DNA of 63,832 bases, counting the filler, from Reclinomonas americana ATCC 50394 (lineage: Eukaryota): the NCBI GenBank assembly GCA_048213135.1. It is 6 parts of 3 records of this genome, joined end to end, with 100 filler letters (N's around TTAATTAATTAA, not from the genome) between each part and the next. Parts side by side here need not be neighbours in the genome. Positions count along the whole stretch, not along the records: positions 1 to 23,335 come from PS015571.1; 5 more parts are not named here. One strand, given 5' to 3'. A model generated the notes under the pieces. It had not been told where the DNA came from and searched no databases. It saw only the letters and a program-made list of their open reading frames with translations. The translations under genes and the position numbers were made by a program. Shown here piece after piece: positions 1 to 63,832 of the stretch; the stretch's first letter is position 1; every line of letters begins with the position of its first letter.

Positions 1-2
1 CT

Positions 3-506
3 GTGCTAGGCATTCGTCGCGAGCTTCTCGCCGACCTGGTCGGCAACGCCGTGGCCACGGCAGCAACGTCGGCCTCGTGCAACACCGGTGGAGAAGCGGC
101 GGTGCACACGGGCATTATCGATCTTGGTGGTGATGAGGGTGATCATGGCGATGTGGAGCACGCAGTGGCCGTGGCGGACAGCGAGGCGGAGGCAGAGAAT
201 GCAGATGACTCGCCATCTGCACAGGATGTGTATGCGGTGGCCGTGGACTGGATGCGGCAACACGCCGAACCCACGAACCGTCACCTGGACACACTGTACA
301 ACCTCTGCGTGGCCAATGTGGCCTCGGTGCATCGCCGCCTCGACTTGGCACAAAACGTACTGCTCGGTCTCCGACGTGCCTGCCAGGAGCATCCTCGCCT
401 ATCGTCGTGGACCGCTTGTTTCAACGAGCTGCTGGCACGCACCAATGATCGACTCGCGCAGACAGCTGGCGTGTTTGGAGCTCTGCATCGCCCGCAGCCG
501 CTGTAG
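3..506 (+). CDS. 3' end of an uncharacterised protein (runs off the window start)
   Basis: Open frame from the window edge to TAG at 504-506, with an acidic stretch followed by helical-looking sequence. No family recognised. Confidence 0.45.
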   Translation: MLGIRRELLADLVGNAVATAATSASCNTGGEAAVHTGIIDLGGDEGDHGDVEHAVAVADSEAEAENADDSPSAQDVYAVAVDWMRQHAEPTNRHLDTLYNLCVANVASVHRRLDLAQNVLLGLRRACQEHPRLSSWTACFNELLARTNDRLAQTAGVFGALHRPQPL

Positions 507-758
507 ATGAACTCATTGAGGAGGTTTACTTCTGCTTCCACTGACCAGAGGAGTCGATGTCAACAGTCGGAGCTCTGCATCGCCCGTAGCCATGACGGGC
601 GTCCAGGGTCAAGGGTCAACAAGCTGCTCGACGGTACTCAGTTTTCCGCGTCGAGTTCACATCGAGTGAAGTTAGTGCGAATCGCAAGAAACTGGGCAGT
701 CCTGCATGTCCAGTTTCGAACACATAGACACGACAGAGCGAAGAAGAAGAAGAAGACC

Positions 759-3700
759 ATGGCGAGTTCCTACTTTTCCACTGGCGACGCTGACGAGCGT
801 TCAAGTCGCCTGCGAGAGCTCGCGCGTCGTATTGCTGCGCCCTTTGAGGCCGCCTCCGCCTCCTCCGCACCACCACCATCAGCAGCAGCAGCACACGCAC
901 ACGCACATGCGCCCACCACAGTGTCACTGGCAGCTGCCTCTGCGGCCGCTGCACCAGCGTCGCCTTCCGTGATGTTGGCGCGCAACTCGACGGTGTTTCT
1001 GAGTCGCGCAGAGAGTGTGGAAGTGGGCTCGGATCGCGCAGAGTTGCGCCGTGTGCTGACAGCAGCAGGTGCGCCGATTGATATTCACCGCGAGATGCAG
1101 TGGTTGCGGTCGGTGAGTGGCATGTTTTTCACAAGATTGCAAATGAGATTGAGTGAGTGCTCATGTCAATGGTCGGAAAAATCCTAAGGACATCACCGAG
1201 GAACTGATCTGTGAGGCGGTGGACTCGTTTCCGCCGGCCTCCATTGGCTACTACCCGGCGGAACGGTGTATTCGTCGGCGATCGGTGGCGCACGAGATTG
1301 TCTTGTTGATCGACGAAGGTACGCTGTTTGAAGTCTGTTTGCAATGCTAGTGTGCTGACGATTGATGGTTTGTCCAGCGTTTGCCGCCGCCGAGGCGTCT
1401 GCGCAGCGAGGCGATGACGAAGTGGATGCCGCGGCGGTGCCGCTGCGAGAGGAGTTCAAGAAGGGAGCGGACGGAGTGGCGTTGTCGGCCGAGGTGCTCC
1501 TGCGACAGCTGCCACTGGTGGAGATTGTGTGTCGCACGCGTGTGGCGGCGATGGCACCCAGTGGCCGCGCGTTCTCTCCCGCCGAGATCGTGCTGGAGGC
1601 CATTGGCTTGCGGCAGCAGAGCCACACGAGCGGCCGCGTGCGCATGAGTGCCGATGGATCGACGGTGCTGTGCGTGCCGACGGCGCGTGTCGTGGAGATG
1701 CAACTGGCTGCGTGTTTCTCCGCGCAGCAGCAGGATCGTGACCCGCGCTTGCGTGCGCTGTGCGAACCACACGGAGGGAATCTGGCGCTCCTCTCCGACA
1801 TGCTCCACACGTCGAGCATCATGCAGACGCTGCGCTACATCCCTGCATCGGAGCGTGAGCCGTTCATCATTTCCGCTGTGGGACGTGAGTGCTTTTCATG
1901 ATGTGCATTACTCGCGCTGTCACACTGCGTTCACACAACGACCCATCGCAGACTCGCGCTTCGTGCAAGTGGTTCAGCCGACACCATCGTCAGAGTTGCT
2001 CATCGGCATGTGCCCGCGCGGCACGTACATTCGCCGGACGCTGCACGACTTGTTTGCCAAGCGTGGCCTCAGTCGATATGTTGCGTGCAGCGACGAGAGA
2101 AGGACGGCACTTATCAGCTGCATGCACTCACACACCTCTTGCCCGCAGCCGGATCTCCTGGAGATCATGGAGGACAGTCCGGAGCGCGAACTGCCGATCG
2201 ACAGCCTTATCAGCCTGGACGAGTTCACCTCGTTCTCCGCGACGGAGCCCATCACGGCTTCCGACATTGTTGCCGCCATTGTGGAGGGCTTTGACGACGT
2301 ACCTGGGTGCCAGCCACCAGTGATCCTGTCCGCCAACGATGAGTGGATCACACCGTTGCGTTTTTCTCTCCCTTTGTCGTCTTGCACCCCCTTCACCACG
2401 CCTTACGCGGATGAGGGTTTCACAGACTCCAACTGGCCGAGAGGTCGCCTGTGCCGCACGGGGCAGCCGACGATGAGCTGCATGATGCATTCCGCGATGC
2501 CATTGCCGTTTCGTCACTTGCTTGCTCACCACAGGCACGATTTTTCGTTGTTTAATACAATGCGCACGCACACAGCATCCCTCGCAGGCACTGTCAAGCC
2601 CACCAGTCGAGGTGGCTCGTTGGTCTCCCGAAGAGGCTGCACATCGTGTGCGCCGCCAGATCGAGTTGTACATGAGCGGTACGCCTGCTTGCCTTTTCCC
2701 GTCGCTCCAGAATTCTTCTCATGTTTCCTCGTGACAGACCGCTACCTCTTGCACGACCGTTACCTGGCTTCGCTGCTGCTGGACTCGGAGGACTGGAGCG
2801 TGGCCGTGGAAGACCTGTTGGGTATCCGTGTGCTCCGCGAGTGGCTGCAGCGGGAGCAGGGTAAGGCACCAGGCGCACGCTTTCGCAAGCGCAGTGGGTG
2901 ATGGAAGGCTCAAATTTGGTGCTGCTTTGCAGATCCGGTGGCATTCATCTGTCGTGCTCTGCGCGGTTCTCGTCGATTGACGGTGATCGGAGAGAGCAGC
3001 AGTGTGCCACGGGTTCGCCGCGACACGCCGCCTCCTGAGTTCCGTCAGGTGCGCATTGCTGGCGCAGAGGAGAACATGCTCAGCATCTGCCCGAAGCCGC
3101 GCAGCGCACCGTTGGGTGAGTACGCATGCATTTGTCACTGCGCACAACTCGAAGCTCACTCGGAAGCGCGTGCGCATGCAGGTCCGTCGTTTTCGGTGGC
3201 CACGTACAACATCTTGGCGCAACATCTCAGTTTCGTTGCAGAAATGGTGCTGCGCAGTTTTCTGTTGTTGGCGCAGGCACTCATCGTGTGATATCCGCGC
3301 AGTTGAGAGTCATCTGACCAACAACCCTGTGCGTAGAATGCGTATCTTGCTAAGCCACTCACTGCGCATGCACCAGTGTTCATTAACTGATTGCTTTTGT
3401 TTTCGCCTACCAGGAGCACTTCGGGTACCTGAGCAGCTTTGAGTGTCTGAGCTGGAGGAATCGCTCGTGGAGTCTGTTGCGTTGCATGCGCATCCTCTCG
3501 TCGCACCACACAAGTATTCATCCAATATACTCTACCTCCCTGCAGTGTACGCGAGATCATGTTCTACAGCCCCGACATTCTGTGCATGCAGGAGGTGCAA
3601 GCGCCCGTCAACCACACCCACCCACAAGAGGACAATCACATGCTGCAACTGCATCAGATGCTGCTCGGCACCTCGGCCGGCTCCGATCCCGTGTACTGTG

Positions 3701-4635
3701 GAGCCTATGGTTCGTGTACCCACATACGCCATGCTTCTATTCTCCCTCACTCTCCACTGGCCGCAGTGCGCAAGCGTGGAACCAACGGCTTTGTGGTCGG
3801 CCCTCGCGGCCCCGTCATCGGCAACACTGTCCACTGGAAGCACGCGGTGTTTGAGCGCGAGTCTGTGTGGCCGGAAGAGTTCGATACATGCGGCTACGGC
3901 GATCGACTGCTGAAGGCCGCCAAGGGCTCGCGCAACCCCGCCTTGACGCGCGTCACGCAAGTCGCAGTGGGCGTCTTGCTGCGTCACCGCGAGTCGGGTG
4001 ATCGAGTGATTGTGGTGTCGACACACATTTCGTGCCAGCACCGCGATCCGCATCTCCAGCTGCGTCAAGTCAAGGTGCTGACGCAGTACATTGAGGATCT
4101 GCAGCGCTTCGTGCGCGCCACGTACGGCGAGGACACGCGTGTCGCAACTGTGCTGTGCGGTGACTTTAACTCGCTGCCCGGCAGCGCGTGCTACAACTTT
4201 ATGGTGGACGGCAATCTCCCTGCTGACGACGAGGTGGCCCGTGCGGCCCTGCAGGATGGCCTGTTCCGCCTGGGAGGACGCGAAGGACGCCTCCGCCACC
4301 CGCTCAACATGCGCAGCTCGTATTTCAGCGTGCTGGGTCGCGAGCCGGTGCACTCGAACTTTGCCATGGGATTCCGCAACTGTCTCGACTACATCTTCTA
4401 CTCGCACGGACTGCTGCGCCCCGTGGCCGTGCTGGATGTGCCGTCGGAACGCGCACTGTCGCTGTACGGCGGCGCGCTGCCGAACGAGTGCCAGCCGTCG
4501 GATCACCTTCCGCTTGTCGGTGAGGAATAGGCGAAGGGAGGGGGGTTCTCGGATGATTCTCATTTTACAAAATTGCTGCGCACAGCTCGTTTCCGATTCC
4601 CACCGTTCCACGGGCCGGCGGATGGCAGTCAGTGA
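759..4635 (+). CDS. Multi-exon protein: tandem La-motif-like repeats + C-terminal CCR4/Angel/PDE12-type EEP nuclease (paralog 1)
   Basis: ATG at 759. Spliced EEP motifs: FSVATYNILAQ, PDILCMQEVQ, STHI, CGDFNSLP, LDYIFY, PSDHLPLVARF. La-like repeat: FLVTDRYLLHDRYLASLLLDSEDWSVAVEDLLGIRVLREWL..DPVAFICRALRGSRRLTV..RVRR. The last exon ends at TGA 4633-4635. The EEP call is firm; the La call is by-eye similarity. Confidence 0.8.
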
Positions 4636-4789
4636 CAGAAGGTGGAATGAATAGTGTAATATGCCCGACAATCAAACGACAGTCACGCACAGCGCTAGCG
4701 AGCTTGAAAGGCAAATCCCGTCGCGTTTGGCCGGATTTCAAGTTGACGGGACAAGTAATATAACACTCACACTCACCACTCGCGAGCCA

Positions 4790-7700
4790 ATGGCTGACGG
4801 GTACAGCCGGTTGGACGATCATGTGAGAGGTTCCATGGAGATGATCCCCTTGGTTCCGCGTGATGCCTGGGGTGATGTCATCGCGTCAGTGCGCGATATC
4901 TGTTGCGTCTCTGCCGCTCTCTCTCTCTTTTCATGCGCGCGCGTGTGTGTGCTCATGCACTATGCGCATACAGTGGAGACACACATGCGTGATCACTCGC
5001 GACAGTCGGCCAACGACGTGCATCTGTGGCACGAAGAGATGCAGACTGTCAAGGTGCTACGAGAGGCCTGCAAAGAGCGCGCAAAGTACGACCGAGAGGA
5101 CCAGGGCGTGCTGTTGTTGGCCTACACCAAGTTCTTCAAGTGGTGGTCGCAGACGCGGTGCACGCGCGCTGCGTGGGATGCTGTCCGTTGCGCTCTCTTG
5201 CATGCACGCAAATGTGCTCGTCGTGTGTGCTTCTAATCACGCGCGGTGAAACACCAGAGTGTCGCTCGCCAGTGGCGTCGCAGCGGTACCCGGATCTCAG
5301 CAGCGTGATCAGTGTGTGTGCTGCGCGCGATCGGGAGCACGAACCACGCGATGTGTGGACGACGGTGCAAGCACTGGCGGATTCTCGCCCTCCTCCGCCC
5401 AAGCCATACGCTGCGCGCCGTCCGCACGTGTACTATGAGCCGGAGCCTGTGAACAGATACCAGCAGTCGGCGCAGCAGCAGTCCATGTATAGCCCGGTTA
5501 TGCCGCCAGCTTCCGCGCAGGCGTACGAGTACTCGGGTGGAGCTGGTGTGGCGCCTCCGATGGCATACTATTCACCGGCAGCAGCAGCAGGGGCAGGCGG
5601 TCTCTTTGATGCACCGGTCGACCGTCTGAGCCATGTGGGCCATCGGGTGCGTGTGGGAGAGAGAGAGAAAGGAGAGGAAAGACTTTGTCAGCGGCACTGA
5701 CTTGTCGATCGTCACCAGCCGGGAGTGGAGATGGGCGCTGCTTCTGGTGGTTTGTTTGACTCGCCGGTCGAGAGACTAGGCCGCCTGGACCTTCAGGTTT
5801 GCGTGAATGGTTGAAGGATTGACAGTCCGTGTGGCGCTCACTGACTGTCACTCCCAGGCGGGCCCTGGTGCGGTTCGCCCCCCCTCGGCTGCCTCTGTAG
5901 CTGGTGGGGTCTTTGATGCACCAGTCGACAGCCTAGGCCGCGCGGACCGTCAGGTGTGTGCCAGCGAGTGAAGAGTGACTGCATCGATCTGTTAGGTGCT
6001 GATCTGATGGTCTTCGTCCAGGCGGTTCGACCGCCGACAGCCGCCGCCGCCGCAGCTTGGTCCCCAGCACCCGTTGGCGCTGCTGCTTCTGGAGGCCTCT
6101 TTGGAGGTCCGGCAGAGCGACGCAGCATCTTGGACCAGGTGCGTGCGTGTGTTTTTCGCGGCGACATGTGAGTATGCTCACTCGACAAGGAGGCCCACGT
6201 AGCCGGCCGAAATCAATCCGTCTGCGGCAGCAGCAGCACCAGCTTCTGGCCACTTCAGCTCCGACGAGCGCAGGTCAGACGCTCGCGCTCGCAAACCAGC
6301 TCGTGAGAAGTCGCGCAGTGATGAACCGGTGCTCTTTGGTCCACCATACTTCCGCGTTCCGCATTCATCACTGCAGTCCGACGCCGGCTACGAAACGTGA
6401 GTTGCTGCCGTGCTCTCTGTTTACCAGTCTCTCGCATTCTGACTGAACATTTGTGCAGGCTCAAGACGCACCGGTCCATCGTCTTCCGCAAGGACTGCCG
6501 TGAGGAACACGACAACAACTTTATCTATCGTTGCGTGCTGTGGTCCACCCACTCCTCCAACTCCTCTGACGCTGGTGTGTGTTTTTGTCTCCTTGCAGTG
6601 CTCGAGTTAGAGGGTGGACGCGCCTCGCGTCGTGTGCGACTCAGTGCGGTGCGTACAACTCATGTGTGTGTCGTGCACAATCACGCACGGCCTGCACTGA
6701 CACTCTTTATGACAGCAATCGCGACAGCAGGGCATTGACCTGTTTCGCCAAAAGTGTGCCTCTAGTGGTCTGCCAGAGTACATTTGCGGCAAGTGCACTG
6801 CGGTGGCACAGGTGGCTCCGAACACCATGGAGGTGAGCCGCATTGTCGTCTGCGCGTTCATTGGGTATGTATTTCTCACCACACAGCGTCTGCAGGCCAC
6901 CCTGGACTTTACGGAGGAAGTGAGGCAAGTCACGCGCATGGGTGAGTCGACCTCGGTCGTCGGTATCCTTTGATTGCATCCTGACGCAATGTGCAGATCT
7001 GGACGCCATTGCGCAGGAGATTGAGGCGGCTGGCTGGCGCTCGGCAGAACGACCCGATGTCAGGCTGCCCGATGTCGAGATGAGCGTCCGCAACCAGTGG
7101 AACGCCGACATCTCTTGGGCCAACGGCACACCGAAGAACATCCGCGCCATTACCATGGTCGTGTGGAGTACCTCGACGCGCAAGCGGTACGGCGAGGTGG
7201 TGGAAGAGATGCGGCGTAACCGACAAGGAAGTGCGTCGCCACCGGCTGCACCTTTCGCTTTGTTGTGATCTCTCACGCAACGGCACGCAGAGCCACTGAT
7301 CCCCATGTTGGCGTTCCACGGCACCAGGGGCGATGTGATTCCAAAGATTCTCCAGGAAGGCTTCAATCCGGCGATGCGCAGGCGAATGGCGTATGGGCAG
7401 GGGTGCGTTACTCTCCACTGCTTTTCGTACTCCTGAATTCCTGTGTATATCTCACGTGTGTGTGTGTGTGCATCAGTGATTACTTTGCACGCAACGCCTC
7501 TGTCAGCATCGGATACGCCGACGCGGCGAACCGCATGATTGTGTTCGAGTGCTTGTTGGAGAGTGCGTGTCCGATGTCTTTCTGTGCACTTACCTACGCA
7601 GTGGGCTCACCGATGCGCTGCCAGGTGGTACCGTCACGTGGGTCGACGCGCAAAACTACTTTGTCGTCAACGAAACCGACAAGTACATGTGGCCGATTGC

Positions 7701-7792
7701 TGGTGAGTGCCGCTGTCGCTGCGATTCTGCTGCTTCGAGGCTGGCATACTGACGGCGCGTGCATGCATGCAGTGATTGATTTTGATCGTTAG
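4790..7792 (+). CDS. Multi-exon protein with a C-terminal PARP-like ADP-ribosyltransferase domain
   Basis: Spliced C-terminus LAFHGTRGDVIPKILQEGFNP..AYGQGDYFARNASVSIGYA..RMIVFE..NYFVVN..WPIAVIDFDR* matches the PARP HGT / YGxGxYFA signature. Continuity with the upstream exons is inferred from GT-AG phases. Confidence 0.72.
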
Positions 7793-8376
7793 GCGCCGTG
7801 CGCGGAAGCGCGCATCATGTGCATGGTGAATGAAGCTTTGTGGAGTGTAACAACTGTATGTTACACTCATTCAGCGACGTAAGCTGCTCTTTTATTACCA
7901 TTTTCCAACCACGGATATCGATGCTTGTGGATTCCCTGTGCTTATGCAAGTGCTGTCTGCGAGAAGATGAAAAGCGAGCACGTCCTCGGTGCAATTATGG
8001 ACCGGAAAGTTTAAGGTCTGCACACCGGCCAGGTTCAGCTGACCAAGGACCGAAGGAAATCGAGTACAATGTCACCGAAAACTGCGAACACGTGAAAGCA
8101 AGAAACTGAAAATGGTATCTGTCCGTGTTTTGCTCTCGACATTGGATGTTTTCAACGCGGACCGTCTTAGTTTACTAACTCTAGCCACCTGGACTCACGC
8201 CTAACATGCACCAATGAACCGACACTTCGCGCTGCAGCCTGGACCGAAATCCGCGCAGCGCAGCGCAGCGCGCGCGCGCTCTAGATCTGCCCGAAATTAA
8301 AAACTGCGCATGCAGCGCATGCTATCTGCAGTCGCAAACATCGAGGCGCAAACCAACGGCCAGAGGGTCCTTTTCG

Positions 8377-8655
8377 TCACTCACACGTGGCACCGGCCGC
8401 GTTGCCAGTCTGAGACGGAGTGGGCGTGGAGGCCGCAACGGGATCATGATCATCAGATTTCGATCGCTCTCGCTCTCGAATGGCATTCAGGCGGCTCTGC
8501 GCGTCGGCCAGTCCACGCCGAGTCTCTTCGGCGCAGAGTGTCGCCAACTTTTCGCGTCGAGTCTTCAGCTCAGAGAGAAGCTCTTCTCGCGACAAAGTGG
8601 TGCGCGGGATGCTGCGGACGATGTTGAACACGCGTTCAGCAGCGCGACAAGCCAT
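8377..8655 (-). CDS. Possible small hypothetical coiled-coil protein
   Basis: About 92 aa ORF (EELLSELKTRREKLATLCAEETRRGLADAQSRLNAIRERE) lying head-to-head with the gene at 8775. No homology recognised. Confidence 0.3.
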   Translation of the reverse strand: MACRAAERVFNIVRSIPRTTLSREELLSELKTRREKLATLCAEETRRGLADAQSRLNAIRERERSKSDDHDPVAASTPTPSQTGNAAGATCE

Positions 8656-8774
8656 CACGATGATGCAGCCTCCCGACTCTCTCCTCGTTCGCGTTTACAC
8701 AAGGGTTCGCCACAGATCGCCAATCAACCGACCGTGGATATCTCGCCTAGCCAAGTAGCCAGCCAGATCCAGCC

Positions 8775-11700
8775 ATGGGCGCCTGTTGCGGGGGCGGTGG
8801 CAACAGCGCCAGTGCTCGTCGACGCAGCATGCTGGACGGTGGCACTGGACTCCCGGTGCGCACACCACTGCCCCATTTCTCTCTCCCCTCACTCCCCCCT
8901 CACACACATGTGTCAGCCCGCTGTTCTGCGACAACTGGCCGCCGATGTGGGTGCCGTGTACGAACGCCTCTTCGAGCAGCTGCCTGAGGACACCGGCAAG
9001 GGCGCCGACTTGTCAGTGTTGGTGAACAAGAAAGGCGAGAATATCGATGTGCAGTTGCTGCTGCCACGACTGGCGGCTGTTGCGTTCTCCCCTCCCCTCG
9101 CCCCTCTATCTCTCTCCCTCATCCTCATGTGTGTTGTGAGCACAGGGCGTTACTGTGTACGACATTGGCGAGGCACTCGAGCGCTTCCCGCTCTACACGG
9201 TGGAGTTTGTGCAGCCGGTCGGCACCAAGCAGTCGCCGAGTGTGCGCGGTCGTCGTGTGGCCGATCAGATCACCGCCCGCCTGGACGACAGTTGCGCCCG
9301 TGCGCGCCAGTCCACACCTGCGCCATGTGCCGTCTCACCCCCCTTCTCCAGTGCTCGCCGATCTGCAGGATGGACGCGGCAACAGCACGGCAGTGGCCGA
9401 TGCCATGGCGCACAGTCCCGACGGGCGAGTCGAGCTGCGCTTGTTTGTTTCCGAGCACCCGGTACTCTCGGCGCTGTGTCAGCGCTACTTTCCACGCCGC
9501 TCGCCTGTGGAGGTGGTGGCGGAGGCCCTCGAAAAGGCCGTTGCGTCTGTGCTTGGTGTTGCTGGGCGGACTTGTCTCACAACCCTCCTTGCGCGCAGGA
9601 TAAACGCGGATCGCGGGTCTGTCTGTGTGCGGATCAACCGCAGTACATGAAGGCGCGCCCGCTGTTGCAGCACCTGGAGCTCATGCTGGGAGTGTGGTTC
9701 AGTGATCGCGGTCTGACGCACTTTCCGGTGCTGCGTGAGCTGTGCGAAAAGTACAACTTTTCCGACAAGTCGGTGCCGCTCGCCGACTTTCTCCAGCTCT
9801 CACGCGTGCGTCACTTGCTGCGACGTGAACCCGAGGCACGGCACGAGGACCACGTGCGCGCGGCGGCCACAGGTACAGATCGTGACTCGCTCTGCTCTCT
9901 GTCTACCATCCGCTGTCACTTCAGTCCTTCGCCACTCGTACTGTGCTCTCCGTCGTCTCACGTGCGTGGTGCTGAATTGCAGCCTCGCCACTGGTCACCA
10001 TCAGCGTGCGACAGCGTGGACGTGGCGCGGTGTTCATTGGGCGCACCAACACGCAGGATTTCGTGCGACGTGCACTCAATCGCATGTTCTCGCCCGAGTG
10101 GATCCACGTGAATCCGCAACTGCTCGAATGCAGCAGTGGGAAGGAGATCCCGGTGGAGGAGTTGCCGCACATGTGGCCCTTCAAGTCGATGACGAAGACT
10201 CCCGTCACGGCCTCCACCATCCGCTCCGTGATCAAGGGCGACTTGTCGGCGGTCTGTCGCGACTGTCGTGCGACGGTGCGCCAAACCTCATCTTCCTCTG
10301 TTTTGCGTAGGTGTGTGTCCGACTGACGCCAAACGGAAAGGCGATTGTGCTGCGCGACGGATCCATGTCACCACTCATGTCGCCCGTCATGAGTCCGGCG
10401 TTCAGTGGAGTTGTGAGTGGACGCGGTGGGATGACATTAGATGCTCGTGCGCCGACTGAACGACCTTCTCTTCGTGCTGCAGATCATGAGTCCACAGGCA
10501 GGCAGCCTTGCGAGTGCCGCCGGCGGTGCAGGTGAGGGCATTGACGATCCTGGCAAGTGGTCGCACGACGAACTGCTTCGTCGACTGCGCTCGCAAGTCC
10601 AGTCGTGGTTCGACGAGTCGTTCCTCCTCTCCAATGCGGTGCGTCGTTGGGGGCGGGGGAAAGATGAATGCATGCATAAGGCTTGGCTTTCATCTGACTG
10701 CTGCGCACAGCAACTGCTGTCGATTCTGCGAGAAAGCGACGGCAGCATCAAGCTGCGTGATCTGCTCAAGTTGTATCCGCTGAAAGAGTGGCTCAGTAAC
10801 TATCCAGGTGCGTGTGCTTATCATAATGCAATGTGCTGGAGTGGCGCTGACAAGTTGGAACAGACCCACTCGACACGCTGTCCACGGCACTACAACGCTC
10901 GCGTGTGCTGCAGGTTTTCAAGGACTCGCGCAAGTCGGCCATGCGCGTCTGTCGACGAAAGGCGCTGCCGGAACTGCGAAAAGTTGCGCTGCTTGACACA
11001 CTCACCACTCGCGCGCTGTTCTCAACTCTCGTGCAGTTTATCGATGAGCTGGATGTGCCAAAGGATGCTGGTGGGGTTGTGTCGCATCTGTTGCTGCTAG
11101 TGCATGTGCGTAACCGTGGCCTCTTGCATCATGCAGTGTACTTCTCGGTCATGTCGTGGAACATTTTGGCCGACATGCGCGCCATCAAGGTCTGTTGTGC
11201 TTCACCGTGTGCGCGCACATGTGAGGCTTGCTGACGCTGTGCAGGAGTTGTATCCACACGTGCCGAACCCGGAACAAGTGCTCGACTGGAACGTGCGGCG
11301 TGCTGGCATGTGCGTTCGTCTGTCTTTGCTCTCGTTGCTGTCATTGCCACTGCTACTGACAGTATTTCTCATTTGTTCCACTCGACGAACAGCATCACCG
11401 AGGTAGGAGCATGCGTCTCGTTGTCTCGTTGAGCTCCTTGTGCTGAGCATGTCGTGTCGCCAGATCGCCATCCGCCGCCCCGACATTCTGTGCCTGCAGG
11501 AGGTGCAAGGCTACGAGGATCACGACGTGGCCGAAGACAATCACGTTGCGCAGCTGACGGAGGAGCTCGCACGCGGCAGCGTCGACGGTGGCGTGCTTGC
11601 CGGTGGTGTGTATGTGCGCAGACGTGGACGCAATCGAAAGGTGCTCCTGCCGGGTCGGCCCAACCTCGGCTGCTCACTCCTGTGGAATCCACAAGTTGCG

Positions 11701-12814
11701 TCGTCTTTACAGTGCGTGTTTTCGTTCAGTGGCTGACGACTCCTGTCGCGTGAGGCAGGTCTTCAAACTCGTTGATGTGCGCGAGTTTGCTCTCGCCGAC
11801 GGTGTGGCAGGGCTGACAGACGACCCGCGAGTGGCGCGCGACATTTCCACCGGGCACACCAATGTGGTGGTGACTGCCGTGCTGCGACACATTCAGTCAG
11901 CGCAGGCGGTGATGGTGTGCTGCGCGCAACTGACCAGCGGACAGCGCGGCCGGTATCCTGCCATTCAGTTGCGACAAGTTGAGTTGCTCTGCACCTCCGT
12001 CCTCTTGACTGTGAGTCGGCCGCGGCAACTGAAAGCCACTCCCTGCAGCTGGTGGCTTTGGTTCGTCACATTGTAGAGTTCCGCGAGGCGTGTCAAATGA
12101 GCGACAAGCCGTTGATACTGGCCGGCGATTTCAATCTGCTGCCAGACTCGCCCGGCTATCGGTACCTGGTGGGTGGCCATCTGTCAAGCAGCGATCCCGT
12201 GTTTCGGTGAGTGGCCGAACATGACTCGTCTCGTAGCGGTGTGTTGCTGACGTGGTGGTTGTGTCGTTCAGTGAGGCCGCAGAACTGCCGGGCTCCACTT
12301 CACCGCTTGCCATCAGCAGCCGCCACGACTTGCATTTCGAGAGCGCATACAAGCACATGCTGGGCGGGCACGAACTTGCTGTGACGCATCGCGCTGAATC
12401 GTTTGCCGGCTGCATCGAGTTGCGGCAGCGTGCCGGCATTGCCAGAAGAGCTCCTGTTTCTCACACTCGCGCATGCGCAGCTACATTCTGTTTGCACGCA
12501 ATTGCGGTCTGCGAGTGGCTGGCGTTCTCGACACGTTCCGTGCTGTGGAGAAAGACGAGGTTGTCGTGTGGCCGAGTCGCCGTGTGGCCTCGGATCATCT
12601 GCCGCTGATGGCCAAGTTCATCTTCGAGGGCGTCTCGCGCAGTGCGCGTCGCAGCAGCAGTGGCGCCATTGACACTGCCGCAGGCGGCAGGCGTCCGTCG
12701 GCCACGGCGATAACGACAACCACAACCACGACGACGACGACGACGACGACGGCAACGCCAGCGGTAACCGCTACGGCAGCGGCGTCAACGGCAACAGCAG
12801 TGACGCGCCGCTAA
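8775..12814 (+). CDS. Multi-exon protein: tandem La-motif-like repeats + C-terminal CCR4/Angel/PDE12-type EEP nuclease (paralog 2)
   Basis: Starts MGACCGG, with intron 8856-8916 in phase 0. EEP motifs: FSVMSWNILAD, PDILCLQEVQ, LAGDFNLLP, IDYILF, ASDHLPLMAKF. La-like repeats include LRSQVQSWFDESFLLSN..RESDGSIKLRDLLKLYPLKEWL..DPLDTLSTALQRSRVLQV..RVCRR. Confidence 0.8.
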
Positions 12815-12827
12815 GCAGCAGTTGGCC

Positions 12828-14952
12828 TCAGCTGTGCGGGCGACGATTCCGAGCGCGGTAGTCGAGCACGTAGAACGAGCCCAGCATCACCGACGACACG
12901 ATACCGGAGGTGAGGAACACGAGGAAGAGCACGCCAAAGCCGTGCGTGTCGGCCAGCTCGCCGCCGAACACATCGAAAATCATGGCAGCGCCGTAACCGA
13001 ACTGCCAACGAAATGAATACGACCAAGAAGGAGAGAAGAGGGGGGCGGTTAGGGAACCCCACGCACCGCATCGAGCAAGCCGACCAAGGCACCGACATCA
13101 GTGGGTATCGCCTGGCACGAGTACACACTCATGGCAATGTAGTAGGGCGCCGCTGTGGCATTCGTGAGTTGGTGGAGGGGAGGCGTACAAGCACAACTCC
13201 ACCCTCACGCACTCACCCACAGAGAAGCCGTACAGGAAGATGAGAACGACGGCGAATGCGGTGGAGACCGGAAAGGCCCACAGACACGCCGAGACGAGAC
13301 AGTTGAACACCATGTTGATGGTGATCAAGATGTAGCCGCCACGCTGCGACAGACGATCCATGATGAAGCCGATGAGCAGCACCGAGGCACCGGCGCCCGC
13401 AGGAAACGCTGCACCGATGTAACAATGAGGAGGATGCACAGAATGAAGGGTGTCAGCATGGACGACGCACCGGCGGCATAGGTAGCCGCGGCTGGCTTGT
13501 CGACATCGAAATTGGCTGCGCGCATGCACGTGAGCGAAACAGCGACAAGCGACGAGTATCAGGCCATACCAACGCACCAACAAGATACGAAGCAATGTAC
13601 TGCTCTCGACGACAACGCTGCGGTGTAAGCAACAATCGCATTCATGCACACAACCAATCACCAAACCGACACACCGATTCAAACTCAAAGACAATGGTGC
13701 AGGCCGCCATGAAGAAACCTGCACGCACGCAGTCATTCTTCTCATCCATCCATCCATCCATCCACTCATTAACATGATTGATCGATCGTACCCATCAACC
13801 AGAATCGCGGCTCCTTGGCAAAGCGCACCACCTTGCTCTCGCAAAAGGCGTCCCACCGACTGCGAGGCTGTGCGTCGGACGGCGACTTGGAACCGGTGGG
13901 CGTCGTGGAGACATCGCTGCTCTCGTCAGTCTGCTGCAGTTCGTCTCTGGCCAGCACACCGACCGTCTGCATCTCCACCTCCTGCTGATCGGTGCCGCCG
14001 CCAGCACCAAGCCGTGCCTCCTCTGCGAGCCGTGCCTCTGCCACAGGCGACGGAACAAAGCCGGCCTTCTCCGGTCTATCACGCAGGAAGAGGAACAAGA
14101 CGACAGAGACCACTGCCAGCATCGCCGAGGCGAGAAAGCACAACTGCGAAAGGGGGGGGGGGGGGTGGAAATTCGAAGGTGAGCCGAGCAGGCACATACA
14201 TGCCACTCCACAGGAACACGTACGCAACAGTCCGCCACCCCAGTCCAAACGCATACAACAGCGCGCCGACGCCAACACCCGACAGCACCGCGCCCAGCCG
14301 CGACGACGTCGAATAGAGTCCCCACACCTTGCCGTAGCTCGAGGGAAAGATCCACGCCTGTGTGTGCTTGGCCAGGCCCGGCCACCCAGCCGCCGAGCAC
14401 ATGCGGAACGCCAGCCACGCGATCACAAACAGCGGCAGCGACGGCGACAAGCCAAACAGCAGAATGGCCAGACACGGCCCGACGACACTCGTCATTGTGG
14501 CAAACTGGCGCGTCTCATCATGAGAGCAATCCCGCGCGCACAGATGCACCCACACAGACCTTGCCACCGGTGCAATCAGAGACAAAGCCGAGCAGGATCT
14601 TGCCCGTGAGCACACCCGCATTGCCGGCAGCAAGCATCCGACCGGCCTCCGTCAACCCAAATGGCTGCAGATGCGCAACTACCTATCAGCACCCACACTG
14701 CATCTTCTCCCGCAATCCACAACGCACTTGAATCGATGGATCATCGTACATGGTCGGCAGCAGCACAAACACCGATCCGCGCGCGAAACTCATTCTGCAT
14801 TCTCTGTGAGTCACTTTGATGCAAGAGCACACACACACACTCACAAAAGAGAAACGCAACGTTGCGTATCCAATGTACAGCAAGACCACGACAAGCACCT
14901 GCCATTGCCGAAAGCGCGGAGGCAGTGGCGGTCGCGTTGCCTCGTTGTCCAT
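12828..14952 (-). CDS. MFS transporter, organophosphate:Pi antiporter (GlpT/UhpC/SLC37-like) family
   Basis: LLYIGYATMSFARGSV in TM1, AAGWPGLAKHTQAWIFPSSYGKVWGLYSTSSRLG, FLRDRPEKAGF, GFIMDRL, and many hydrophobic segments across exons. Confidence 0.8.
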
Positions 14953-22247: not shown

Positions 22248-25200
22248 TCAGCAGCAGCCACCCTTCTTCTTTTCCTCCACCACCGGGTTGGCAAACTGCA
22301 TTATTGGCTTGCATGTGAGCATCACTTCCCTCTATGTACCAGAACACACGCACACAGTGGGGAACGGGCACACGCAACTTGCACAGGAGCATCTCGTTCG
22401 TGAGACGGCTCTCCCCGGTTCGCATCACCGCCGTGAATTGCGTTCTGCTTCGCAATCACCGTGTCCAGCAGCTTGCCAATGGCACCCAGCTCCGACGACT
22501 GCGGAATCGTCTTGTCCGTCAGCGCTGCGTCCATCCACGGCACACCGTGAGCAGCACACAAGAGCGAGAACGAGACCATGCATGACACACCGTAGCCGGA
22601 GAGGGCGGAGCAGTACGACCATCCCTCAAAGCCCTGCTGTCTGACCAGCTCCTCGATCTGTTGTCTCGACACCTGCGTGCGGTCTACCAAGTCGAACTTG
22701 TTCGCCAGCAGAATGCACGGCACGTTGGTCTTGCCGTCGGCCAGGTGCACCTTCCTGTCGAGATCGGCCTTCCACTTGGCCACGGCCTCGAACGAGTCTC
22801 GCCGTGTTACATCAAACACCACAAAGGCACCCACAGCGTCCTTGTAGTACACCTGCCAAACAGCATAAGTCACGGCAGCGAAACGGGCTTGACACACACG
22901 CAACACACACTCAACTCGAGTCATTTGACCAAAGCGCTCCTGCCCTGCGATATCCCACAGTTGCATGCGCACGAGGCAGTCGGGTCGCGGCACCACCTTC
23001 AACGCAAAGTCAACTCCAATCTGCAGACACGGCACATCATGTGAGTTGAACTTGAAGCACTCTGCTACGTGATGCGCCCTCTCTCTCTCTTTCTCTCTCT
23101 CTTTCTCATACACTGTGCGCGCACATGCATGCGTGCGCGTGTGCGTCTGGCAACTCGCAGACGCGGCGAGTGAGCATGCGTTGTTGTGTATCACTCACTC
23201 ACCGTTGACTTGTACGATCCACTGAACATGTTGTGCACCTGCACACGCGCCACGCACACATCATCAGCACCGGCCCCACCACACGCACAGAATGCGTGCG
23301 CGTGTGTGTGACGCGCGTCATGTCAAAGCACACACNNNNNNNNNNNNNNNNNNNNNNNNNNNNNNNNNNNNNNNNNNNNTTAATTAATTAANNNNNNNNN
23401 NNNNNNNNNNNNNNNNNNNNNNNNNNNNNNNNNNNAGAGAGAGAGAGAGAGAGAGTAGAGTACACACAGGTCTCCGTAGCACGCAACAGATCATATCAAT
23501 GGCGTCAAAGATCTTTTTCGCTGCGCAACCCAGCCAGATGAGACACGCGACAACGACAACAGGCACACAGCAATGCACACCATTCCGGAATGGATGCTTG
23601 CCGCAGGCCAGAGTGAGCAGCGTAAGACCAAAGCTCCAAATGTCAGACGACGTGTTGTGTTCCAGACGAGCAATGCGCTCCGGCTGCGCACTCCACGGTG
23701 AGACGAGGCACACACAGAGAGAAAGAGAGACGAGGCACACACAGAGAGAAAGAGAGACGACGGCACATAGTCGCGTACCGACATGTAGATGGCAGTGCCG
23801 GTGTAGGTGTTGCCGGCATCTCGCCTCTCAATACCCACTCGCGCCGAGTTGAAGTCCGACAGCTTCACCTCGCCCTTCTGATTCAACAGCAAGTTCTCCG
23901 GCTTGATGTCACGATGCGTGATTGGGTTCTCGCGGTTGTGCAGGTGCACCAGACCCTCGACCGCCTTCAGCAAGCACATAAAGATGAGTGGCCAGCAGAC
24001 CACACAACCCATTCACCGCGCCAACGAACCTGCAAAGCGATACACAGCAGCACATCCTCCGGCACCGCCTTGGCAGAGCGCGCCACCGAGCGGCAGTCCA
24101 TGTACTCCAGCACAAAGCAGATAAAGTGCTCGTTGTAGAAGAAGCCAATGGAGCGGATAATGTTGGGATGCGGGTTCTGCACACACACACAGTGAGCGAG
24201 AGAGATAGTGAGCACATGCACAGACTGGCCGACGCGCGTCATGATGCAGACCTGCAACGAGAAGAGCGTGACGGCTTTCTCACGCGCAATAGGATCCACG
24301 GGCGCTTCCGCACTCAAGCTGGCATACTGCACCACTTTGACGGCCACCAGCTCATCAGTGACCTTGTTGCGCCCGAGAAACACCTGCGCGCGTGCGTGAG
24401 TAAGAGTCGCACGAGACTTGACCCCCTGTGCCCATAAATCGCACCTCAGAAAAGGCGCCTTGCCCGAGAAACCGCACGTTCTCGTAGTCGTCGACACACA
24501 GCAGCCCAAACTCCGCATCCATCGCATCCCCACTGCACAGAGGCAGTCAGTCAGTCATTTTCTTCATGACAAGAGGTGTCGCGCGACTCACGAGTGGCGC
24601 TCCACCACCAACAGATCCTCGGGGAGGTCGATGCGCACACCACGCTCCACCATTGAGAACGGCGAGGCGGAGGTCGGTGCGTCGAGCGGGTCCAATTGAA
24701 GTGACTCAAAAGTCACTTTTATCACTTCACAATGTCAGCAGCAGCCGGCGGGTCGTCATCATCAAGTGCAGCAGGCGGCGGCAGTGCGAAGCCTGAGGTG
24801 CTGTTCAAGATCCTGGTGGTGGGCGATGTCGGCACCGGCAAGACCAGCATCATCAGGAAATACGTTGCNNNNNNNNNNNNNNNNNNNNNNNNNNNNNNNN
24901 NNNNNNNNNNNNNNNNNNNNNNNNNNNNNNNNNNNNNNNNNNNNNNNNNNNNNNNNNNNNNNNNNNNNNNNNNNNNNNNNNNNNNNNNNNNNNNNNNNNN
25001 NNNNNNNNNNNNNNNNNNNNNNNNNNNNNNNNNNNNNNNNNNNNNNNNNNNNNNNNNNNNNNNNNNNNNNNNNNNNNNNNNNNNNNNNNNNNNNNNNNNN
25101 NNNNNNNNNNNNNNNNNNNNNNNNNNNNNNNNNNNNNNNNNNNNNNNNNNNNNNNNNNNNNNNNNNNNNNNNNNNNNNNNNNNNNNNNNNNNNNNNNNNN

Positions 25201-25828: not shown

Positions 25829-28052
25829 ATGGTGGAGCGTGGTGTGCGCATCGACCTCCCCGAGGATCTGTTGGTGGTGGAGCGCCACTCGTGAGTCGCG
25901 CGACACCTCTTGTCATTAAAAAGAATGACTGACTGACTGCCTCTGTGCACACAGTGGGGATGCGATGGATGCGGAGTTTGGGCTGCTGTGCGTCGACGAC
26001 TACGAGAACGTGCGGTTTCTCGGGCAAGGCGCCTTTTCTGAGGTGCGATTTGATGGGCACAGGGGGTCAAGTCTTCGTGCAACTCTTTACGCACGCACGC
26101 CCGCGCGCAGGTGTTTCTCGGGCGCAACAAGGTCACTGATGAGCTGGTGGCCGTCAAAGTGGTGCAGTATGCCAGCTTGAGTGCGGATGCGCCCGTGGAT
26201 CCCATTGCGCGTGAGAAAGCCGTCACGCTCTTCTCGTTGCAGGTGTGCATCATCATGACGCGCGTCGGCCAGTCTGTGCGTGTGCTCACTATCTCTCTCG
26301 CTCACTGTGTGTATGCAGAACCCGCATCCCAACATTATCCGCTCCATTGGCTTCTTCTACAACGAGCACTTTATCTGCTTTGTGCTGGAGTACATGGACT
26401 GCCGCTCGGTGGCGCGCTCTGCCAAGGCGGTGCCGGAGGATGTGCTGCTGTGTATCGCTTTGCAGGTTCGTTGGCACGGTGAATGGGTTGTGTGGTCTGC
26501 TGACCACTTATCTTTATGTGCTTGCTGAAGGCGGTCGAGGGTCTCGTGCACCTGCACAACCGCGAGAACCCGATCACGCATCGTGACATCAAGCCGGAGA
26601 ACTTGCTGTTGAATCAGAAGGGCGAGGTGAAGCTGTCGGACTTCAACTCGGCGCGAGTGGGTATCGAGAGGCGAGATGCCGGCAACACGTACACCGGCAC
26701 CGCCATCTACATGTCGGTACGCGAATGCGTGCCGTCGTCTCCCTTTCTCTCTGCGTGTGCCTCGTCTCATCGTGGAGTGCGCAGCCGGAGCGCATTGCTC
26801 GACTGGAACACAACACGTCGTCTGACATTTGGAGCTTTGGTCTTACGCTGCTCACGCTGGCTTGCGGCAAGCATCCATTCCGGAATGGTGTGCATTGCTG
26901 TGTGCCTGTTGTCGTTGTCGCGTGTCTCATCTGACTGGGTTGCGCAGCGAAAAAGATATTTGATGCCATTGACATGATCTGTTGCGTGCTACGGAGACCC
27001 GAGTGTACTCTCTCTCTCTCTCTCTGCTAACACTCACTGTGCGCCACACAGTGAACCAAGATCCGCCGCGTCTCGACGCCGACAAGTTCTCCCCCGATCT
27101 GTGCGACTTTATCAGTCTGTGTCTGCAAAAGGATCCTGCGTGCCGACCGAGTGCCGTCGAGTTGCGGCAGCATGCGTTCTTGCAGCGCGCCCCTGCCAAT
27201 CCATGTTCCGTGGTGGCCAAGTGGGCGGCCGTGCACTGCCCGCCGGGGCAGGCCACGGATGCTGTGGATGGTGTGATACAGCTGCTGCTTCTTGCTTTCC
27301 TTTGTGCGCTGCTGTCTCATTTCGGCTTGAACAAAGAGGCCATGTTCTACATGTCGCGCGGTCGCAGCGACCGTGGGTTCTTCCCCTCGTCGGCACCGGT
27401 GTCCATCAGGGCGCCGCAGTCGCAGCAGCGCAGTGTCGCGTTCTCCGTGCGCAAGAGCCCACAGTCGACCGCCACGCGCCTCGTGCCCAGCGAGCTGCGG
27501 TGCGTTGGGTGACGACTTGCTTCACGCCCTCACCTGCTCACTCTGATCTGTGCCTGTGTGCATGTGTGCAGGTTGGTCAACATTCCACTCAAGACGCGCT
27601 CGGCCGACCAGTTGCGCGAGGACTACGTGCATCGGGTGATGCTCAACCCCACATCGCCGCTGCGCAAGAATCTGAGGAGACCAGGCGTGGCAGGTGCCGC
27701 GGCGGCAGCAGCAGCAGCAGGTGGAGGAGGTGGAGGCAGTGTGCCGACATCCATGGGCATCAAGTCGTGGCGCGCAGTGGATCCTTCACAGTGGATGGAC
27801 GTGGCACCCATGTCGACGAGACGAGCGGCAGTTCCGGGTCCGCCTGGTGGTGATGGTGCGGACAGCACCGACGCCGTGCAGCAGGCCATGATGGAGGCGA
27901 ATGCGCCCTCATTACGGCGCCACCTGGACCCGGTGATGGACGTGCTGCCGGGCATGCACGACGACACAGACTTGCACATGGCGGGCATGTTGGTCGGATC
28001 GCTGGAGGAAGGCGACCCGGGACCACTCATGCTGGGCGACGTGGAGACATGA
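25829..28052 (+). CDS. STE7/MAP2K-like Ser/Thr protein kinase with a C-terminal extension
   Basis: LGQGAFSEV, VAVK, VLEYMD, HRDIKPENLLLNQKGEVKLSDFN, TYTGTAIYMSPERI, SDIWSFGLTL, PPRLDADKFSPDLCDFISLCLQKDP. Confidence 0.88.
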
Positions 28053-29581: not shown

Positions 29582-30872
29582 ATGAGCGCGGCGAGTCTGT
29601 CGCGCAGTGAGCGCACGTACATTGAGGGTGGTGCCTCACATGATGTGCGTGTGGATGGGCGAGGGCGACTGGACGCGCGACACTCGTCTGTGCGCACGGG
29701 TGTGTTGCCGCAGACGAATGGCTCTGCAAGAGTTGCGCACACTCTTCTCTGCAAGTGAGTGAGTGTGTGCGTAGTGTCTCATTGGTGAGTGATGCAGGTG
29801 CGGCTGGGAGAGAGCACAGAGGTGCTGGTCGGTGTCAAAGTCGAGCTGGGCGATGTGGATGTGGCGTTCCCGAATCGTGGGCGTGTGGAGCTCAGTGTGG
29901 AATGGTGTGCATACACACACCCATGCACACACTCACTCACTCACTCACTCTCCTCATTCATTCACTTGCATGCAGCTCGCCGAGTGCGTCGCCTGAGTTT
30001 GAGGGCCGCGGAGCCGAGGACATTAGTGCAGAGCTGGCACGCATTCTGTCGCTGATGAATGGCAGTGCGACGTTGGACTTGGAGGCACTGTGCATTGTGC
30101 CGGGGCGCATCTGTTGGATTGTGTTTATCGATTGCCTGGTGCGTCTGCTGGTGCCATTTCACGGTGGTTGCGTGAGAGTCTTACGAGGTTGGTGCGTAGG
30201 TGTTGGACTCGTCGGGCAACCTCGTCGACGCGCTGCAGCTGGCGTGTCATGCCGCGCTGGCGACCACATCGTGCGGAATTTTTTCTTTTCCGAGTCTCCT
30301 CCGCTGGCGCTCATTCGTCTTTCTGCAGCTACCCGAAGATCGAGGTCACCACGCTGGCCGACGGGCAGCCGGAGATCGACGTGTCGGATGATCCGGAAGA
30401 CAGTGTCGCACTCAACACCAACAAGGTGCCGCTGAGCGTCACACTGGCCAAGGTGGCGTTCGATGAGTCATTCCGCGCATGCGCACGCGCTCGTATCTCA
30501 CTCACTCATCCTATCTTCCCCTCCACGTGCAGTTGGGCAAGCGCTTTGTCGTGGACCCGAATGCACAGGAGGAGGCTTGCATGTCGTCGCGTGTCATTGT
30601 GGGAATCAACCGCGACGGTAACGTGTGTGCGGTGGAGAAGATTGGTCGGCAGGGATTGAATCCGACCGAGCTCAGCGACATGATTCAGGTGCGGTGGTGG
30701 TGGCACTCGTGTTGTGCCGATCTTGTCGCCCTCACTCTTCCTCTCTGTTTTGCAGTGCGCCAAGACAGTGGCACTACGAAATCTCCGAGTGCTGCAGGGC
30801 GTGCTGGAAAAGGCAAGGGCGAGCGATCCGTCGACCGCGGCCACCGGCAGCTTTTTTGATCCCTCCGAATAG
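29582..30872 (+). CDS. RRP42: Exosome complex component RRP42
   Basis: LSRSERTYIEGG..RVDGRGRLD..QTNGSARVRLG..VLVGVKVE..SPSASPEFEGRG..LCIVPGRICWIVFIDCLVLDSSGNLVDA..FVVDPNAQEEAC. Confidence 0.93.
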
Positions 30873-63347: not shown

Positions 63348-63786
63348 TTACTTGGACACGTTGGCCAGGCCCTCCAGTTGCGCCTTGAGCTGCTGGTTCT
63401 GCTTGCGCAAGAACGTCATTTCATCCTGCAGAGCGGAGGTGAGCACACAACGATCAGCCGCTGACTGTGGTTGGCGGCGCAAACCTGATGCGTCTTCTCA
63501 TCGAGTGCCCTCCGCTCGGCCTCCTTCTTGGCATTGGCCTCGATACGAGCCTTGAGTTCCTGCACCTGTCGCGACAGCTCCTCCTTCTCGCTCTCCAGAT
63601 GCAACACTCGCCTCTCCAGCTCGCCCTTGCCCTGCTCCGCCTGCAACGCCTTGCGCATACCAAACGCAATGGCGCTCTCATACAGCGTCCGGTACGCCGC
63701 CACCGTCATTCGCATCTCATCGCGCACACGCAGCAGCAACAGTCCACGCTCCGCGCACGTAATCGTCACTTGTCGAATCAACTCGT
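63348..63786 (-). CDS. DNALI1: Axonemal inner-arm dynein light chain p28, 3' part
   Basis: DELIRQVTITCAERGLLLLRVRDEMRMTVAAYRTLYESAIAFGMRKALQAEQGK..FLRKQNQQLKAQLE. Confidence 0.95.
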
Positions 63787-63832
63787 CTGAACACAAAGAG
63801 GCAAATGTGAGCTACAAACAGAAAGGATAAGA

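Follow-up and report, generated by a model that had tools for sequence, protein, structure and literature searches.

La motifs are generally viewed as single modules that are paired with an RRM and that protect or chaperone RNA 3' ends, and CCR4-type nucleases usually depend on partner proteins to reach their substrates. A La-type domain is also found within another enzyme acting on RNA 3' ends, HEN1 (PF21224), a small-RNA 2'-O-methyltransferase in which one La-like domain accompanies a methyltransferase and not an EEP nuclease. According to two reports (PMC11259064, PMC9458460), the La motif of LARP1 can bind an RNA 3' end without an RRM. A term search of a survey on the architectures of La and LARP proteins from 2020 (PMC7928011) gave no mention of tandem or multiple La motifs or of a nuclease. 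The window analyzed here is a stretch of 63,832 nucleotides from Reclinomonas americana ATCC 50394 (GenBank assembly GCA_048213135.1). It holds two genes, designated gene 1 and gene 2, in each of which an array of La-like repeats is predicted to be followed by an EEP (Exo_endo_phos) domain in the same polypeptide. On the basis of their sequences, both are assigned to a distinct, uncharacterized La-array and EEP subfamily of CCR4-like phosphodiesterases, hereafter the La-EEP family.

CCR4, CNOT6 and CNOT6L have in common with gene 1 the EEP fold and seven active-site residues, but possess an N-terminal LRR, which docks to CAF1, at the place where the La-EEP proteins have a La array; no LRR match was obtained with Pfam in the open reading frames (ORFs) or exons of the window. 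Unlike CCR4, the La-EEP family also displays an extra 'QG....DH' segment after the LQEV motif. PDE12, a 2',5'-phosphodiesterase and mitochondrial deadenylase, is the best-scoring solved sequence for the EEP domain of gene 1, and a PDE12-like N domain (PF21171) was not found by Pfam in the ORFs or exons of the window. The repeats of the family are homologous to the La motif of La and of LARP1, 4, 6 and 7. The 'La module' of La and the LARP families consists of a La motif directly followed by an RRM1 and is accompanied by regions specific to each family (DM15, PAM2, LSA, xRRM), whereas the La-EEP family shows several tandem La motifs, no RRM and an attached catalytic domain; no RRM or LARP-specific Pfam family was detected in the ORFs or exons of the window or in the 36 relatives scanned. 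One relative, P0023, gives a weak match to PF21224 (E=0.0024).

The window is about 60% G+C, its introns are short and of the GT-AG type, and its positions 1-14000 are devoid of the N-gaps present elsewhere. Raw ORFs shift frame every few hundred bases across both genes. A codon log-odds table was trained on the clear coding stretches of the window and used in a splice-aware dynamic programme in order to obtain gene models, four spots of which were corrected by hand according to the spacing conserved among relatives. The predicted genes have exactly the limits given by an earlier note on this DNA, made from the sequence alone:

759-4635, + strand: gene 1, from ATG 759 to TGA 4633-4635, 10 introns, 957 amino acids; predicted by the dynamic programme and family spacing
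759-1112, 1189-1318, 1378-1884, 1994-2079, 2149-2354, 2599-2678, 2738-2860, 2933-3234, 3414-3475, 3546-4519 and 4586-4635, + strand: exons of gene 1
8775-12814, + strand: gene 2, from ATG 8775 to the stop codon 12812-14, 14 introns (8856-8916 counted), about 955 amino acids; predicted by the refined dynamic-programme model
8775-8855, 8917-9078, 9146-9290, 9352-9539, 9599-9853, 10015-10275, 10441-10638 and 10711-10807, + strand: exons 1-8 of gene 2
10864-11189, 11245-11309, 11448-11694, 11759-12010, 12049-12206, 12320-12418 and 12481-12814, + strand: exons 9-15 of gene 2

Each protein contains five repeats of about 80-110 amino acids, alignable in one register and followed by the EEP domain. 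The fusion of the two parts is independent of any predicted splice, because the junction sits within a single exon in both genes. Exon 2933-3234 of gene 1 encodes the last part of repeat 5 (...VPRVRR) as well as FSVATYNILAQ, the first EEP motif, and exon 10864-11189 of gene 2 likewise holds both the end of repeat 5 (...MRVCRR) and FSVMSWNILAD. The reading frames across the junction are uninterrupted from 2935 to 3234 and from 10866 to 11189, respectively.

The hand corrections concern both genes. A donor of gene 1 was moved to 3235, which places the conserved Trp 18 residues past NILAx as in the relative P0004, and its final intron was set to 4520-4585, by which the family C-terminal strand 'PLVARFRF' is regained. 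Two introns of gene 2 were set to 11190-11244 and 11310-11447, regaining 'LDWNVRR' with its family-invariant Arg, and the first intron was placed at 8856-8916 on a donor (G/GTGCGC) and a pyrimidine tract; an alternative start of gene 2 is ATG 8908. Several proposals of the dynamic programme were dropped accordingly. An intron 799-957, lying over a low-complexity stretch, and a donor at 3286 in gene 1 gave way to replacements fitting the family-conserved spacing, as did introns 11209-11278 and 11293-11406 in gene 2, where the invariant Arg is regained as well. As a separate observation, GTTGCG is the opening sequence of 8 introns among the 24 modelled (2080, 2355, 3476, 9079, 9291, 9540, 11695 and 12419) and GTTGCA that of one more (3235); the preceding exon ends in a nucleotide other than G for all nine.

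The nuclease part of both proteins comprises the following features:

3184-4599, + strand: EEP domain of gene 1, amino acids 580-946, with all seven active-site residues
3583-3642, + strand: 'CMQEVQ...QEDNH' segment of gene 1, after the Mg-binding Glu
11136-12625, + strand: EEP domain of gene 2, amino acids 530-869 of the model starting at 8908, aligning to the family EEP
11491-11547, + strand: QEVQ...EDNH segment of gene 2
11915-11935, + strand: 'VCCAQLT' of gene 2, with Gln at the active-site His; this residue is His in 16/16 relatives and in gene 1

The gene 1 ORF at 3451-4530 is matched by PF03372 with E=2.4e-10 and 41 bits (cut-off 24.5), and the match of gene 2, obtained with a single exon ORF, is weak (E=0.014). 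Among solved sequences, the EEP domain of gene 1 is closest to PDE12 (3.9e-19) and yeast Ccr4 (7.4e-16), followed by Nocturnin, CNOT6/CNOT6L and ANGEL2, in agreement with the CCR4/Angel type originally proposed. PDE12 is also the best named database match of the gene 1 EEP exon (30% identity), and a word-indexed search with this exon returned two spider PDE12s only. PMC6158716 describes the conserved CCR4-family active site as a set of seven amino acids (N, E, H, D, N, D, H). All seven were found in gene 1 upon alignment with 16 relatives, and its active site is intact in sequence. Gene 2 keeps six of the seven (N, E, D, N, D and D-H); the Nocturnin equivalent of its substituted His is His286, which the same report counts among the conserved active-site residues of the CCR4 family. 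The segment following the Mg-binding Glu appears as 'LQEVQG..........DH' in the consensus of the 16 relatives, 15 of which carry the segment His. It had been regarded as an insert indicating duplication; its occurrence in both paralogs stands, but its presence in the consensus makes 'LQEVQG...DH' a hallmark of the family, as far as sequences tell, and not a mark of a local duplication.

To collect relatives, 1.84 billion representative proteins were searched exhaustively by HMMER with the EEP exon of gene 1. This yielded 2125 proteins at E<=1e-3, with 43% identity for the best of them and no self-match. Pfam La was detected at E<=0.01 in 20 of the 36 long relatives scanned, reached the gathering score in 15, and was always located N-terminal to the EEP domain, in up to 3 stretches. 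A scan of 115 further matches added one La carrier. Altogether, 29 of 158 relatives carry La stretches: three in 16 proteins, two in 7, one in 5 and four in 1. The relative P0004 has three Pfam La stretches (E=1.8e-36). One 81-residue stretch of this protein matches 17 solved La-motif sequences, including LARP7 (6.9e-9), a La protein (1.5e-8), human La, LARP6, LARP1 and LARP4. A LOTUS/OST-HTH identity of the repeats had been considered and was abandoned after the relatives gave Pfam La matches. Two relatives have additional domains: P0109 combines La and EEP with a MavL-like ADP-ribosylhydrolase macrodomain (E=2.8e-87), and P0046 combines CCCH zinc fingers with three La motifs and an EEP domain.

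The architecture had been described in the earlier note as unrecognized. No published account of a La-EEP protein was indeed found in the openly searchable literature, subscription papers and InterPro lying outside this search. The architecture is, however, not unique to this genome and occurs in many sequences from microbial eukaryotes. A profile of 16 relatives retrieved 4 proteins in a word-indexed search, and precomputed PF05383 and PF03372 matches already stand on relatives in public sets. Relatives were automatically named 'mRNA deadenylase ... Ccr4' by the JGI, and automatic annotation thus currently gives the family the wrong label 'Ccr4'. In this respect the architecture is partly catalogued already, which the earlier note had listed among possible refutations.

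A structural model of P0004 (pLDDT 77.5) displays four consecutive helix-rich units, each closing with two strands, in addition to the EEP domain. The fourth unit precedes the three La domains and is silent in Pfam but has the same order of helices and strands, which hints that degenerate outer units may be a trait of the family. Foldseek on the full model returned EEP matches only, with CNOT6L first (TM 0.86), then PDE12, Nocturnin and ANGEL2.

The La stretches of the relatives were used in turn to examine the repeats of the two genes. A profile of 106 positions was built from 67 Pfam-La stretches of 29 EEP relatives and searched against the spliced proteins, and each pair of corresponding repeats (gene 1 and gene 2) was compared with the La family alignment using hhalign. 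The repeats are:

960-1281, + strand: gene 1 repeat 1, amino acids 68-149; aligned by eye and MAFFT, no hidden Markov model (HMM) match, hhalign 7.9%
1282-1679, + strand: gene 1 repeat 2, amino acids 150-262, with an insert; -0.4 bits, hhalign 46%, with the match in register over the C-terminal two thirds of the La motif
1680-2037, + strand: gene 1 repeat 3, divergent La motif, amino acids 263-345; 7.8 bits, keeps the Q and D positions
2038-2599, + strand: gene 1 repeat 4, divergent La motif, amino acids 346-428; 6.7 bits
2624-3024, + strand: gene 1 repeat 5, best La motif, amino acids 437-526; 42.5 bits, E=5.9e-15
8908-9256, + strand: gene 2 repeat 1, colinear with gene 1 repeat 1; no HMM match, hhalign 7.9%
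9257-9661, + strand: gene 2 repeat 2; 3.6 bits, barely over the control maximum, hhalign 46%
9662-10044, + strand: gene 2 repeat 3, divergent La motif; 14.3 bits, E=3.4e-6
10045-10455, + strand: gene 2 repeat 4, divergent La motif; 12.8 bits, E=1e-5
10561-10961, + strand: gene 2 repeat 5, the best La motif of this gene, in three exons; 36.3 bits, E=4.9e-13

The highest score reached by 402 shuffled or reversed controls was 2.5 bits. The hhalign probabilities are 98.5% for repeat 5 (E=2e-15), 95.8% for repeat 3 (7.1e-9), 91.4% for repeat 4 (8.9e-7), 46% for repeat 2 (2.1e-4) and 7.9% for repeat 1. Three La motifs per protein, repeats 3-5, are established by these sequence comparisons. Repeats 1-2 are possible degenerate La-like units, recognized as a pattern by eye and colinear between the paralogs. 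The original reading of four to five La-like repeats per gene holds for repeats 3-5, all of which exceed every control, and not with the same firmness for the first two. The best repeats had been placed at 2711-3020 and 10570-10965, which corresponds to repeat 5 in both genes. That of gene 1 is distributed over three exons (...RRQIELYMS / DRYLLHDRYL...REQ / DPVAF...VPRVRR). The gene 1 exon 1380-1883 covers repeat 2 and the greater part of repeat 3; its AlphaFold2 (AF2) model, computed from a 4-row alignment, is too poor to judge (pLDDT 49.8), and a search of the ESM Atlas gave no usable match to this exon.

The N-terminal regions of the two spliced proteins are colinear, with 127/478 identical positions (E=2e-27), and their EEP parts are identical at 120 of 325 positions (36.9%). 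The intron noted earlier before 'DP' in repeat 5 occupies the same alignment column and phase 1 in both genes (2861-2932 in gene 1, 10808-10863 in gene 2), and two more positions are shared: 1113-1188 with 9079-9145 (phase 0) and 1319-1377 with 9291-9351 (phase 1). With three intron positions in common, the origin by duplication is upheld and the two predicted genes are spliced paralogs. Since repeat n of gene 1 pairs with repeat n of gene 2, the array is older than the gene duplication.

An EEP phylogeny, which had been suggested as a check, was built using IQ-TREE (LG+C20, quick search) and rooted at the midpoint only. From 164 EEP-positive sequences, 111 covering the domain were retained, and the removal of 8 near-copies left 103 rows. 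A single group of 45 rows (SH-aLRT 100) takes in gene 1, gene 2 and all 23 La-bearing rows. Apart from it stand the 7 LRR-bearing rows (SH-aLRT 99), 4 zf-C6H2 rows (85) and the 6 PDE12-N (PF21171) rows, the latter within a separate 12-row clade (SH-aLRT 100). Both genes are thus grouped with La-bearing relatives, away from LRR-CCR4 and PDE12. La motifs N-terminal to the EEP domain, the 'LQEVQG...DH' segment and a position in the 45-row clade are found for both proteins. Branches are long, 1.21 and 1.86 for the proteins of the window, that of gene 2 (1.86) being the longest in the tree. The group also includes 20 unlabelled rows, 12 of which have at most 101 residues ahead of the EEP domain; the other 8 have 126-377 residues with no clear La match.

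The proteins are most readily understood as stand-alone La-guided RNA 3'-end exonucleases independent of CCR4-NOT, an interpretation by analogy which we hold to be probable without being secure. It is the simplest mechanism because a La motif can bind free 3' ends alone, CCR4-type EEP domains trim 3' nucleotides and other members of the CCR4-like family use an N-terminal module to get to their substrate or partner. The tandem, RRM-less La array would replace the N-terminal docking module, that is, the LRR in CCR4 or the PDE12-like N domain in PDE12. It would bind the free 3' end of single-stranded RNA or the region close to it, in the manner of the La motifs of La and LARP1, and thereby present the tail to the EEP site. 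This Mg-dependent site would strip 3' nucleotides by deadenylation or 3' trimming, with no need of the CCR4-NOT scaffold. The array seems to have partly decayed in this organism, with the EEP-proximal motif alone near canonical; the outer units would probably serve as spacers or provide low-specificity contacts with RNA or proteins.

A number of points weigh against this La-guided exonuclease. The classical 3'-end-binding positions of La, which we take to be six (Q, two aromatics, D, F, F), were mapped onto the repeats through the LARP7 alignment and read Q, L, Y, D, Y, I in repeat 5 of gene 1 and Q, S, W, N, Q, L in repeat 5 of gene 2. About four of the six are kept in the former and at most two in all other repeats, and the partial degeneracy of the canonical RNA-binding residues remarked upon earlier is confirmed, most positions being replaced. 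The relatives keep mainly the Asp (15/23 EEP-proximal motifs, 14/18 second and 7/10 third motifs). Pfam La (PF05383) was found in 0/13 raw ORFs and 0/12 single-exon pieces of the window; this silence is attributed to the introns interrupting the motifs, the best repeat being split twice, and not to absence of the motif. The models of both genes come from splice prediction alone, and the P0004 model is no reliable guide to how the domains are arranged relative to each other (pTM 0.53). CCR4-like EEP domains are not all RNA exonucleases, as PDB titles describe ANGEL2 as a 2',3'-cyclic phosphatase and Nocturnin with NADPH. Lastly, a La motif and an exonuclease site would compete for the same 3' end, and it is not obvious which geometry would allow a simple 'hold and cut'.

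The main rival reading is that of a non-RNA or cyclic-phosphate substrate. The EEP domain would act on a special phosphoester (2',3'-cyclic phosphate, NADP(H) or 2',5'-oligoadenylate), and the La array would only localize the enzyme to ribonucleoproteins or RNA ends. The top rank of PDE12 among solved sequences speaks for it, together with the Nocturnin-NADPH and ANGEL2 matches of the P0004 model in Foldseek (E ~1e-22) and the distinctness of the La-EEP clade from the LRR-CCR4 clade. However, yeast Ccr4 scores almost equally to PDE12, gene 1 retains all seven CCR4-type residues and no feature peculiar to such activities was identified. The La pocket, moreover, reads a free 3'-OH, which a cyclic-phosphate end would not fit. 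On these grounds a special phosphoester is considered an unlikely substrate.

The repeats could also be decayed La folds that bind no RNA end and act in protein interaction or as spacers, gene 2 then being an impaired pseudo-enzyme or scaffold. The key La positions are mostly substituted, repeats 1-2 are barely recognizable, gene 2 combines Gln at an invariant His with the longest branch of the tree, and the eight clade members with 126-377 pre-EEP residues show no clear La match. Repeat 5 of gene 1 nevertheless retains Q, Y, D and Y, four of the six positions, and the arrays of the relatives are well-conserved La, with E down to 1e-36. The substitution of His by Gln in gene 2 need not abolish function either, because the H286A mutation of Nocturnin left repression in cells about unchanged, according to PMC6158716. 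A decayed array that no longer binds RNA appears rather improbable.

The weakest alternative, in which the fusion is an annotation artefact joining separate La-like and EEP genes or the repeats are a chance similarity, could be upheld by the origin of the models in our own splice prediction, but it is hardly tenable in view of the continuous frame that links repeat 5 to the first EEP motif in both genes, of relatives with the identical order on transcript-sized contigs and of La-profile control scores lying far under the observed ones.

Under the favored La-guided mechanism the two copies may differ. Gene 2 looks like the more derived of the two and has probably shifted or lost some of its function, judging from the His to Gln change of its active site, an Asp to Asn change at the La position contacting the 3'-OH and a possible acylation signal. 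Its exon 8775-8855 encodes MGACCGGGG..., in which Gly2 is followed by Cys4 and Cys5. This N-terminus resembles a signal for myristoylation and palmitoylation, provided that translation starts at ATG 8775 and that intron 8856-8916 is removed. The C-terminal tail of gene 2 (12700-12811) is of low complexity with a run of 13 Thr, and a Pfam mucin match on this tail remains below threshold (E=3.1e-6, 27.7 bits versus a cut-off of 34.7).

A wider and more doubtful proposal is that La-array EEP proteins form a widespread protist class of self-targeting 3'-end nucleases that circumvent CCR4-NOT, their tandem RRM-less La motifs reading a poly(A) or oligo(U) tail and passing it to the fused exonuclease. 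The class would be represented here by two ancient paralogs, of which gene 2 would have turned into an RNA-end binder tethered to membranes and altered in its catalysis. A conserved family with up to four La motifs in a row, joined directly to the nuclease, would imply that a La-motif array can serve alone as a targeting device and that a fold known as a 3'-end 'protector' has been recruited into a 3'-end 'destroyer'. The family also offers a simple single-polypeptide system for the RNA-end selectivity of La-motif arrays.

Other features were observed elsewhere in the window. At 30467-30856 (+), 18 kb downstream along the window, an ORF contains an RNase PH C-terminal domain of the 3' exoribonuclease family (E=4.6e-10); this is another component of RNA 3'-end decay, and nothing so far ties it to the La-EEP genes. 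Near-identical fragments of a protein-kinase ORF lie on opposite strands, at 23494-24554 (-) and 26504-26974 (+), flanking an N gap at about 24.8-25.7 kb, and a small-GTPase-like N-terminus (…VGDVGTGKTSIIRKY…) reads out of this gap on both strands. The kinase fragments around the gap stem from an inverted duplication or else from an artefact of the assembly. Finally, an axonemal dynein light-chain ORF (PF10211, E=4e-41) is located at 63419-63811 (-). Its best matches, at 70-75% identity, are found alike in cryptophytes, a green alga and animals, and its presence implies that the organism builds flagella.

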